NCBI GenBank assembly: GCA_964016885.1
Contig: OZ024743.1
Span: forward strand, 334,924,001 to 334,988,000
DNA: 64,000 nucleotides
Source of the DNA: Eledone cirrhosa
Lineage: Eukaryota
Reading direction: 5' to 3'
Shown here: positions 37,503 to 40,195 of the stretch, one piece after another
How the letters are laid out: each line of letters starts with the position of its first letter
Position numbering within the stretch: the stretch's first letter is position 1
Program-made: the position numbers and the translations under genes
Notes under the pieces: model-generated
Told to the model about the DNA's origin: nothing
Database searches by the model: none
The model's input: only the letters and a program-made list of their open reading frames with translations

Positions 37503-38524
37503 CTTTATAATGTATAGATATATGTATATATATATATATATATATATACATACATACATATATATACATATATATATATATACATATATATATATATATA
37601 TATATATATATACATACATATATATATATATATATATATATATATATATATATATATATATATATATATATATATGTATATATATACATATATATATACA
37701 TAAATATATATATAATGTATAAATATATATATAATGTATCTTTATAATGTATAGATATATGTATATATATATATATATATACATACATACATATATATAC
37801 ATATATATATATATACATATATATATATATATATATATATATATACATACATATATATATATATATATATATATATATATATATATATATATATATATAT
37901 ATATATATGTATATATATACATATATATATACATAAATATATATATATATATATATATTAAAATAACAGATTAAAGAGCTTAAGCAAAGAAACGCTGCTT
38001 TCATCCTTAACGGGATCTTCTGAAACTGTCTTCACATTTATATATTATTACTATATACACACACACACACACACACACACACACACACATATATATATAT
38101 ATATATATATATATATATATATATATATATATATATATATATATATATATACATACATATATATACATATACATATACATATACATATATATATATATAC
38201 ATATATATATATATATATATATATATATATATATATATATATATATATATATATATATATATATATATATATATATATATATATGTGCATGCTACTGTAC
38301 GTCTGTATACATATATGTATGTACGTATACATGCATACTTACATTTAAGTAAGTGCCATACTAAGAGTGAGAAATGAAATTTCGTTTTCATTTTGTTTCA
38401 ATTTATCGTTTTCGGTATGCCTGACCGATTTAACTCACTCAATATGCAAATTAGGCTGCTCAGCCGTTAATTTTCATAAGGAAAGTATATACTTTCGAAC
38501 GTTCAACTATCTGGCAGATGGGTA

Positions 38525-38569
38525 AACGGTGCTGATGATAGCTAACAAGCTTGAAACTAGTACATCGTT
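38525..38569 (+). ncRNA. Type I hammerhead ribozyme (family A2, copy 1)
   Basis: aacggtg CTGATGA tagc taacaa gctt GAAAC TA GTA catcgtt. Confidence 0.92.
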
Positions 38570-38998
38570 CCTGTGTCAGTGTTGAACAAAAAGGTGACGT
38601 GGTTGCCTTAACACCGTATGGCATAAATTCAGGCTGTTCAGTTTGTTTACAAATGAACAAAGCGACGTTATAATAAGCGCCGCTAAACTGATACGTGCAT
38701 ATATGTATGTGTACCTGTATGCATATGTATATATATATATGTATATATATATATATATGTGCATGCTACTGTACGTCTGTATACATATATGTATGTACGT
38801 ATACATGCATACTTACATTTAAGTAAGTGCCATACTAAGAGTGAGAAATGAAATTTCGTTTTCATTTTGTTTCAATTTATCGTTTTCGGTATGCCTGACC
38901 GATTTAACTCACTCAATATGCAAATTAGGCTGCTCAGCCGTTAATTTTCATAAGGAAAGTATATACTTTCGAACGTTCAACTATCTGGCAGATGGGTA

Positions 38999-39043
38999 AA
39001 CGGTGCTGATGATAGCTAACAAGCTTGAAACTAGTACATCGTT
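38999..39043 (+). ncRNA. Type I hammerhead ribozyme (family A2, copy 2)
   Basis: Identical to 38525-38569, 474 bp downstream. Confidence 0.92.
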
Positions 39044-40195
39044 CCTGTGTCAGTGTTGAACAAAAAGGTGACGTGGTTGCCTTAACACCGTATGGCATAC
39101 ATTCAGGCTGTTCAGTTTGTTTACAAACGAACAAAGCGACGTTATAATAAGCGCCGCTAAACTGATACGTTCATATATGTATGTGTACCTGTATGCATAT
39201 CTATATATATATGTATATATATATATATATGTGCATGCTACTGTACGTCTGTATACATATATCTATGTACGTATACATGCATACTTACATTTAAGTAAGT
39301 GCCATACTAAGAGTGAGAAATGAAATTTCGTTTTCATTTTGTTTCAATTTATATATATATATATATATATTAAAATAACAGATTAAAGAGCTTAAGCAAA
39401 GAAACGCTGCTTTCACCCCTAACGGGATCTTCTGAAACTGTCTTCACATTTATATATTAATACTATACACACACACACAAACACACACACACACACACAC
39501 ACACACACACACACACACATATATATATATATATATATATATATATATATATATATATATATATATATATAATTAAGGATACTGTTTATGGTTATGTATA
39601 TACTAAAACCTTTTATAGTTATATATATTTTAAACCATAAACAGTGAAAGACAGTAATTTATTACTACCTTATTACCAGTAAGATAAATAGCTCAATGTA
39701 ATAACATCAGTTGTTCTACAGAGCAGTTATATAGCAATTACATGAATCAAAGTTCTGTTCAAATCATTTATTAGCTTACAATTGTTTCTTCCAAACCGAG
39801 GTTTGGAGTTTCGGAGTAATTTTTTAATGATTGTTTACATACATGACCTCCTTTCCAACACAAGAGACATACAGAAACATATGTATATATCGATGTACAT
39901 TGGGTTGACATCCATTATAATATTTTAGCATGGCAATTTACATTCAAATATTAAAGTCATATTAAAAGAAAATTAAAACAAGATTAAAGTTAAAATACAA
40001 CATTGGCAGTTTACGAAGATAATGCAAGAGGATAGTCTGAAGTAGTTAGTGTATGCAATAGTTACACGTGGGGCATGCACGTGTGTCTTATTTATATAAG
40101 ATTATAAGATTATATATATATATTTATATATATATATATATATTTAAATGACGGGAGGCCGGACTGGTGAAGTTCCCTCAAAGATTTATTTTAGC

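Follow-up and report, generated by a model that had tools for sequence, protein, structure and literature searches.

Tandem repeats with type I hammerhead ribozymes that are expressed as circular RNAs are known as non-LTR retrozymes, and the available parts of the same papers propose that the machinery of PLEs reverse-transcribes these circles (PMC7229834, PMC7761336, PMC4209133). A 2026 preprint, in its accessible portion, derived a PLE origin from co-occurrence and pseudo-LTR similarity and suggested that arrays are amplified locally at the DNA level; it also reported that 8 of 9 predicted Xenopus retrozymes gave no cleavage in vitro (10.64898/2026.07.22.740005). A short palindromic helix III with activity as a dimer is a described state of metazoan hammerheads (PMC4209133, part of the text). 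The accessible text of a study on a purified anole PLE has shown that this protein, a predicted dimer, cleaves the two strands, extends both of them and starts at two adjacent internal sites, which delimit the tail; uncut RNA was the main substrate in vitro and the ribozyme was dispensable (PMC11167929).

Here, we compared with these systems an array found at 38285..39352 of the window, that is, the whole stretch of 64,000 nucleotides analysed. Its family is called A2.

The A2 Insertion and Its Flanks

The features of the locus are as follows.

37958..38056 (no strand assigned): duplicated flank, left copy, a fragment of another PLE end
38285..39352 (+): one-armed A2 insertion of 2.26 units; its 5' end lies in the TA tract of the unit itself and its 3' end at the long (L) start site
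38285..38758 (+): A2 unit 1, 474 bp, origin of the unit numbering
38338..38347 (+): short (S) start site at unit position 63, where a hairpin loop is predicted; internal here, 3' end in many other copies
38433..38491 (+): block immediately 3' of the L site, the one most conserved towards the sister family A1 (80%)
38501..38587 (+): hammerhead 1, of type I, in which helix I is extended; core at 38532-38562, predicted cut after 38562 (GUA), palindromic helix III at 38556-38561
38710..38758 (+): TA-rich linker, whose length and interruptions form a per-insertion fingerprint in young lineages
38759..39230 (+): A2 unit 2, 472 bp, with 4 substitutions and a 2-bp TA indel relative to unit 1
38975..39061 (+): hammerhead 2, with cleavage predicted after 39036
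39231..39352 (+): incomplete last unit, positions 1-122, which contains a PLE-type tail of 59 nt (39294-39352)
39342..39352 (+): L start site, unit position 122, running into the target (TA)n
39370..39467 (no strand assigned): duplicated flank, right copy, 97% identical to the left

The original prediction of about 2.3 head-to-tail units inside (TA)n with no credible ORF held. TRF gave a period of 474, 2.3 copies and 98% matches at 38249-39352, and the longest ATG ORF of the circle was 39 aa on the plus strand and 76 aa on the minus strand. The monomer measured from cut to cut was exactly 474 nt, as predicted, with 35% GC. It had also been claimed that the array ends do not match the cut site. 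The 3' end indeed lies 316 nt beyond the second predicted cut; however, this end is a site fixed across the whole family and not an arbitrary one.

A 97-bp flank, absent from the original prediction, was found on both sides of the insertion with 97% identity. Together with the CA and TA tracts, this repeat is probably a long target-site duplication, and nicks in two TA tracts would be its simplest origin. Such long flank duplications were uncommon: 4 matches were found among 98 insertions, of which one was merely another piece of A2, leaving 3 real cases. The conserved block at 38433..38491 is a candidate protein-binding element.

The A2 Hammerhead

Each full A2 unit contains one type I hammerhead with a predicted cut after unit position 278. 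In hammerhead 1, CUGAUGA lies at 38532-38538 and GAAACUAGUA at 38553-38562. The region folded with a z-score of −2.4, and both distal helices of the extended helix I formed as had been proposed. The fold of the whole monomer had a z-score of −8.1, which was inflated by the self-pairing TA tract.

The hammerhead had been called intact. Its cuts after 38562 and 39036 are still predicted; however, three features are at odds with that description. The score against Rfam HH9 was 18.5 bits (E = 0.043), below the gathering score of 52. Helix III is a palindrome of only 6 nt (ACUAGU), and the 10.1-11.1 pair is U·U. For a single copy, the predicted minimum-energy fold was an alternative one, 3 kcal/mol below the active-like fold. 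Because helix III is palindromic, the hammerhead is predicted to need a dimer, in which two such palindromes would pair at −4.8 kcal/mol.

We then considered the conservation of the core. Among 48 loci picked by motifs outside the core, recurrent alternatives occurred at 0 of 11 invariant positions versus 48 of 203 other positions, a modest contrast of about P = 0.05. In the same 48 loci, position N7 was free (29 T, 19 C) and the pair 245/281 covaried. In an alignment of 21 rows, which were selected for the core, 92.8% of the cells paired and 11 of 29 pairs changed on both sides (0 of 500 shuffles), many of the double changes coming from two A1 rows. Covariation was seen in helix I. The core was also retained in A1 despite an overall identity of 54% to A2. 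Judged from these sequences, the A2 ribozyme motif is retained, though non-canonical.

Family Size and the Sister Family A1

An exact 33-nt core of A2 had 10,624 matches in the 3.0 Gb assembly, while the control had 0. A second motif had 18,160 matches, and 20 extra loci sampled from them were older subfamilies with 74-98% identity. Near-identical copies were spread over many contigs. Our sample comprised 151 loci (numbered with L below) after removal of overlaps, taken from the best matches, from all 52 clusters among the first 100 core matches listed, and from sets chosen by variant or array length; it is thus small and enriched for young, long arrays.

The sister family A1 is present in the same window:

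32864..33502 (+): A1, unit of about 467 bp with 54% identity to A2; hammerhead at 33220-33291 and a 3' end of S type

The A1 hammerhead has a canonical G10.1-C11.1 pair and scored 38.6 bits against Rfam HH9. A1 has two start sites of its own, separated by about 70 nt, and very young copies of it were found (loci L167-L196).

By sequence and organisation, A2 is a large, partly very young non-LTR retrozyme family, newly found within a known kind. A name for the family and the rule on PLE tails described below may already be on record. An assignment of A2 to the plant LTR retrozymes, which have type III hammerheads in LTRs together with PBS/PPT and a 4-bp TSD, was rejected: A2 has type I topology and tandem units, and a unique core flanked by paired LTRs is absent. 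Matches of low depth in runs that bear the names of other organisms were no evidence for a wider range.

Insertion Ends and Probable Mobilisation by PLEs

The 3' ends of A2 were fixed at two sites 59 nt apart, namely unit position 63 (S) and positions 117-122 (L; class limits 102-128). Measured from the predicted cut, the two sites are 259 and 318 nt downstream. Among 289 arms, 97 ended at S and 136 at L (233/289), and the remaining 56 were interrupted, off the edge or otherwise unclassified. Of the classified arms, 170/176 ran into (TA)n. The 5' ends were spread round the unit with a pile in its TA tract, and those of later rounds avoided positions 267-295, around the cut site.

We parsed 193 insertions, and in 96 of them two arms were joined head-to-head, mostly through overlaps of 1-6 nt. 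All 63 head-to-head insertions in which both ends could be classified paired one S end with one L end (63/63); in the other 33, one or both ends were unclassifiable. An earlier pass had given 50 S+L and 1 S+S, after which the filter was tightened; the S+S case was an 80% match to a self-complementary stretch of the A2 unit. A1 showed S+L in 13/13 insertions from 23 loci; a rearranged case and a gapped one were excluded. The ends of four other hammerhead-bearing element families in the flanks, which are of PLE type, showed the same in 21/21; two of these families (PLEa and PLEe) carry PLE-like ORFs and two are known by their ends alone. The rule was thus kept in 97/97 insertions across A2, A1 and the four other families.

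One short and one long end are the signature of the PLE tail, so mobilisation of A2 by PLEs is well supported. This agrees with the original proposal of insertion by PLE proteins, and we hold it to be very probable from the anatomy of the insertions. Sequence similarity between A2 and four PLE end regions was not found. The original prediction expected a variable permutation of the ends, which applied to the 5' ends and failed for the 3' ends, and it counted fixed ends against the hypothesis. However, the fixed 3' ends of A2 reflect the internal initiation of PLEs, as described in the available part of PMC11167929, and are therefore no argument against a circle.

Some A2 arms were joined at their 5' ends to arms of other hammerhead or PLE families (L129, L038, L061, L044, L088, L079, L039 and L107), and S+L was kept in 5 of 7 scorable cases. 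These joins may come from two RNAs on one complex, from template switching or from deletions between neighbours. We rejected them as proof of co-integration, since the fit to S+L equally allows a deletion between neighbours.

Circular or Linear Template

Because S and L both lie downstream of the cut, synthesis on a cut linear monomer would halt at position 279. A2 arms, however, crossed the cut site up to 16 times (27 times in one array with signs of later duplication). The junctions at the cut site had normal length in 443 of 444 cases, and none of 90 later-round 5' ends fell within 10 nt of the cut (269-289), where 5 were expected. The template was therefore either a ligated circle or an uncut multimer.

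The TA linker was used as a fingerprint to explore this issue. In the very young 139A lineage, 52 of 85 monomer cores were identical, yet the linker was specific to the insertion. Exact linker matches were found in 182/335 comparisons within the same arm, in 146/216 with the opposite arm (68%) and in 133/6004 between insertions (2%). The linker pattern missed one of the two linker types of L149, and those were left uncounted. A linker was common to both arms in 10 of 11 two-armed insertions, which was reached by none of 100,000 shuffles of the arms. The arrays of L134, L148 and L153 were nearly uniform in both arms. In L149, 12 linkers between joint and tail showed a strict alternation of two different monomers, with each arm ending on the same one, a pattern that fits what would be expected of a dimer circle primed twice in one unit. 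The haplotype 174A+182A filled all units of L007 and occurred elsewhere in the genome in only one unit of L003 (3 matches at 2 loci).

Other variants were less specific. In L140, L086 and L090, marks were present in both arms but only in the 3'-most full unit, which fits a linear multimer and a multimeric circle equally well. Periodic blocks over part of an array or in one arm only (L083, L085, L126, L132) suggest duplication of DNA after insertion, and periodic variants were rejected as a general proof of multimeric circles because several periods cover only part of the array or one arm. The idea that array-wide variants are private to one locus was dropped for 139A (470 matches, a young lineage) and 288C (79 matches) and held only for 174A+182A. 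The array of L085 (G000:C3:180042721-180059075) exceeds 28 units and contains a higher-order repeat of 10 units as well as a duplication of 5 units; its two breakpoint intervals include the cut site, but they are too wide for this to be meaningful.

Our preferred reading is that A2 is a non-coding retrozyme whose 3' ends are fixed at two sites and lie in (TA)n, and that it was likely mobilised by PLEs in trans and likely copied from circular RNA. We consider this reading probable as a whole. The original prediction had assumed a circular RNA copied for more than two rounds. Repeated, scar-free passage of the cut site stands, and the circle is likely, with the linear multimer as its rival.

Priming from both target ends by a PLE could also have used an uncut linear RNA, read through from a donor array, with the length topped up by occasional duplication of DNA. 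This, too, predicts scar-free cut sites and no pile-up of 5' ends, and uncut RNA was the dominant in vitro substrate in the accessible text on the anole PLE (PMC11167929). It would be in line with the rank-specific marks in both arms of L140, L086 and L090, with unit types common to L089, L086 and L028/L117, and with the partial periodic blocks. However, nearly all insertions would each require a long and homogeneous donor of their own: in one lineage, 14 insertions have mostly different fingerprints, each uniform over up to 18 linkers, although TA tracts visibly drift inside older arrays. The only other match to the L007 haplotype in the genome is that one unit of L003. A linear multimer also gives no reason for the retention of the ribozyme core, and we regard it as rather unlikely. 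A ribozyme-cut linear monomer, re-used by an RT that jumps from its 5' end to a 3' end, might likewise yield homogeneous insertions if the jumps were intramolecular, and the heterologous joins suggest that template switching is possible. With 443 of 444 cut sites free of indel scars and no later-round 5' ends at the cut (0/90), this reading is highly improbable.

An insertion of about one unit might instead have grown into an array by unequal crossover or slippage, as satellites do and as the available part of 10.64898/2026.07.22.740005 proposed for vertebrate retrozymes. The 10-unit higher-order repeat of L085 and a 3-unit repeat in one arm only of L083 are of this kind. Yet both inverted arms are often multimeric and have one shared fingerprint in lineages too young for point mutations, and the arrays are bounded by the S and L sites and a single inversion joint. 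Such growth is able to modify arrays but unable to account for most of them, and as a general origin it is very unlikely. The A2 unit may also be considered as the pseudo-LTR of a coding PLE that is seen as 5'-truncated remnants. A2 has PLE ends and a PLE-type hammerhead, and in L044 a PLE coding sequence lies directly upstream in sense. But upstream of an A2 unit is another unit, an inverted arm or target DNA, and the circle has no ORF above 76 aa. The original prediction had named constant attachment to a coding PLE as grounds for rejection; with seven PLE protein queries derived from the window, an in-sense coding sequence was found in 1 of 53 non-TA 5' flanks, where it was fused mid-domain and not at the end of the ORF. 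This reading is extremely unlikely for the present units, while a descent of A2 from an ancestral pseudo-LTR is likely.

Proposed Mechanism

With a circular template, the insertions may be explained as follows. A2 arrays would be transcribed, and paired hammerheads would cut the RNA after unit position 278. A host ligase would close the monomer, sometimes a dimer or trimer, into circles. A PLE dimer would then cut both strands of a (TA)n target, and each 3'-OH would serve as the primer for an internal start of reverse transcription, one from S and the other from L within the same unit, so that both polymerases would run round the same circle. The arms observed range from a fraction of a unit to at least 16 units, both with the same insertion-specific fingerprint, and head-to-head arms are joined at variable points. 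If only one end is extended, as would be the case at 38285..39352, the cDNA would be joined to the other target end, often via the TA tract of the unit; this one-armed joining likely left the long target duplication.

In its widest form, this model would mean that A2 arrays record in the genome how a host circular RNA was reverse-transcribed by the rolling-circle mode. A single PLE dimer would prime both cut (TA)n ends at two fixed sites on one circle, monomeric or multimeric, for many rounds in both directions; one arm with a tail and one without would be the general integration mode of endonuclease-bearing PLEs, and the rare joins to ends of other PLE families would reflect two RNAs on one complex. 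We place about even confidence in this combined account.

Other Elements in the Window and Flanks

Several other elements were found in the window:

40740..46140 (no strand assigned): PLEa, young coding PLE-like insertion of two arms, of which one has a tail and the other none, used as comparator
1264-4538, 6345-7900, 16211-17355 (−): further PLE-like remnants
9872-13102, 30484-31710, 35776-36669, 53613-53972 (−): LINE-type RT fragments and a Tc1/mariner-like fragment; Pfam RVT_1 for 10694-13102 and 30484-31710

The arms of PLEa were 100% identical over more than 1.2 kb, with a hammerhead near each end and an asparagine-rich segment in the ORF. The ORF was 25% identical to the RT/GIY-YIG element at 1.3-3.6 kb of the window; it had no Pfam match and no solved relative, and its homologues were unnamed. 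The putative identity of PLEa as a PLE rests on this 25% identity together with its anatomy. The remnant at 1264-4538 matched Pfam RVT_1 (weakly) and GIY-YIG, and a hammerhead with a palindromic helix III lies near 1048. One fragment, which had no Pfam match, we take to be Tc1/mariner-like because it resembles the transposase in a motif.

A GC-rich, near-perfect hairpin of about 85 nt at 52163-52251 matched several miRNA models below threshold and is probably a small foldback element. Rfam matches in the window that pointed to miRNAs were rejected as noise of TA repeats. The flanks of A2 loci contained at least 6 other hammerhead-bearing element ends in (TA)n, many of them in the form of tiny two-armed insertions of 50-400 bp. 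One of these hammerhead families has a long, stable-looking helix III.

Implications

The integration of animal retrozymes and a circle as its template have been proposed before, and the accessible part of the in vitro study of a PLE speaks for linear, uncut RNA. The value of A2 is evidential, as PLE-type integration is seen directly in the anatomy of its insertions. Because the family is large, partly very young and has a fast-changing barcode in each unit, circle versus linear can be tested genome-wide within one assembly. A 474-nt A2 RNA with two mapped start sites would be a minimal substrate for PLE biochemistry. Under the S+L rule (97/97), the "optional tail" of PLEs turns into a strict constraint on how integration proceeds.

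Comparison with Known Systems

Metazoan non-LTR retrozymes resemble A2 in several respects. In the available parts of PMC7229834 and 10.64898/2026.07.22.740005, they consist of AT-rich, non-coding units that each contain one type I hammerhead and are repeated in tandem, from dimers to long multimers; they also co-occur with PLEs, and the short helix III of A2 is like that of the dimer-dependent amphibian ribozymes. The A2 unit of about 470 bp is longer than the RNA range of 170-400 nt in PMC7229834 but within the 51-972 bp of 10.64898/2026.07.22.740005. Expression and circles have been demonstrated for those retrozymes and are predicted for A2. The case for PLEs in those papers, as far as their available text goes, consists of co-occurrence and pseudo-LTR similarity, to which A2 adds fixed start sites, head-to-head arms and fingerprints. 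Our search, which covered parts of the sources, found no literature on the ends of retrozyme insertions, on two-armed retrozyme insertions or on per-insertion fingerprints.

The non-autonomous Chlamys PLEs, e.g., MRC1, are multicopy head-to-tail insertions moved by PLEs, as A2 would be; however, their 3' end resembles that of an autonomous partner and their clade lacks canonical hammerheads, while A2 has a hammerhead (PMC8557442). Endonuclease-bearing PLEs have 5' truncation, an inverted head-to-head arm, a tail at one end, microsatellite targeting and a hammerhead upstream of two internal start sites, all as in A2 (PMC8557442, PMC3846280, PMC11167929, in their accessible parts). The start sites of A2 lie 259 and 318 nt past the cut, and its tail is 59 nt versus 30-40 in those elements as described in the available text. 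A2 ends share 2-3 nt of identity with the target TA, unlike the anole element, for which initiation in vitro took place at sites without homology (PMC11167929, part of the text).

A2 differs from endonuclease-bearing PLEs in that it has no ORF and forms arrays of up to tens of units. In L1 twin priming, both target ends prime on one RNA and an inverted 5' segment is joined by microhomology. There, the site of the second primer varies, and each arm is copied from a different part of a linear RNA. In A2, by contrast, both sites are fixed and the two arms copy the same sequence repeatedly.
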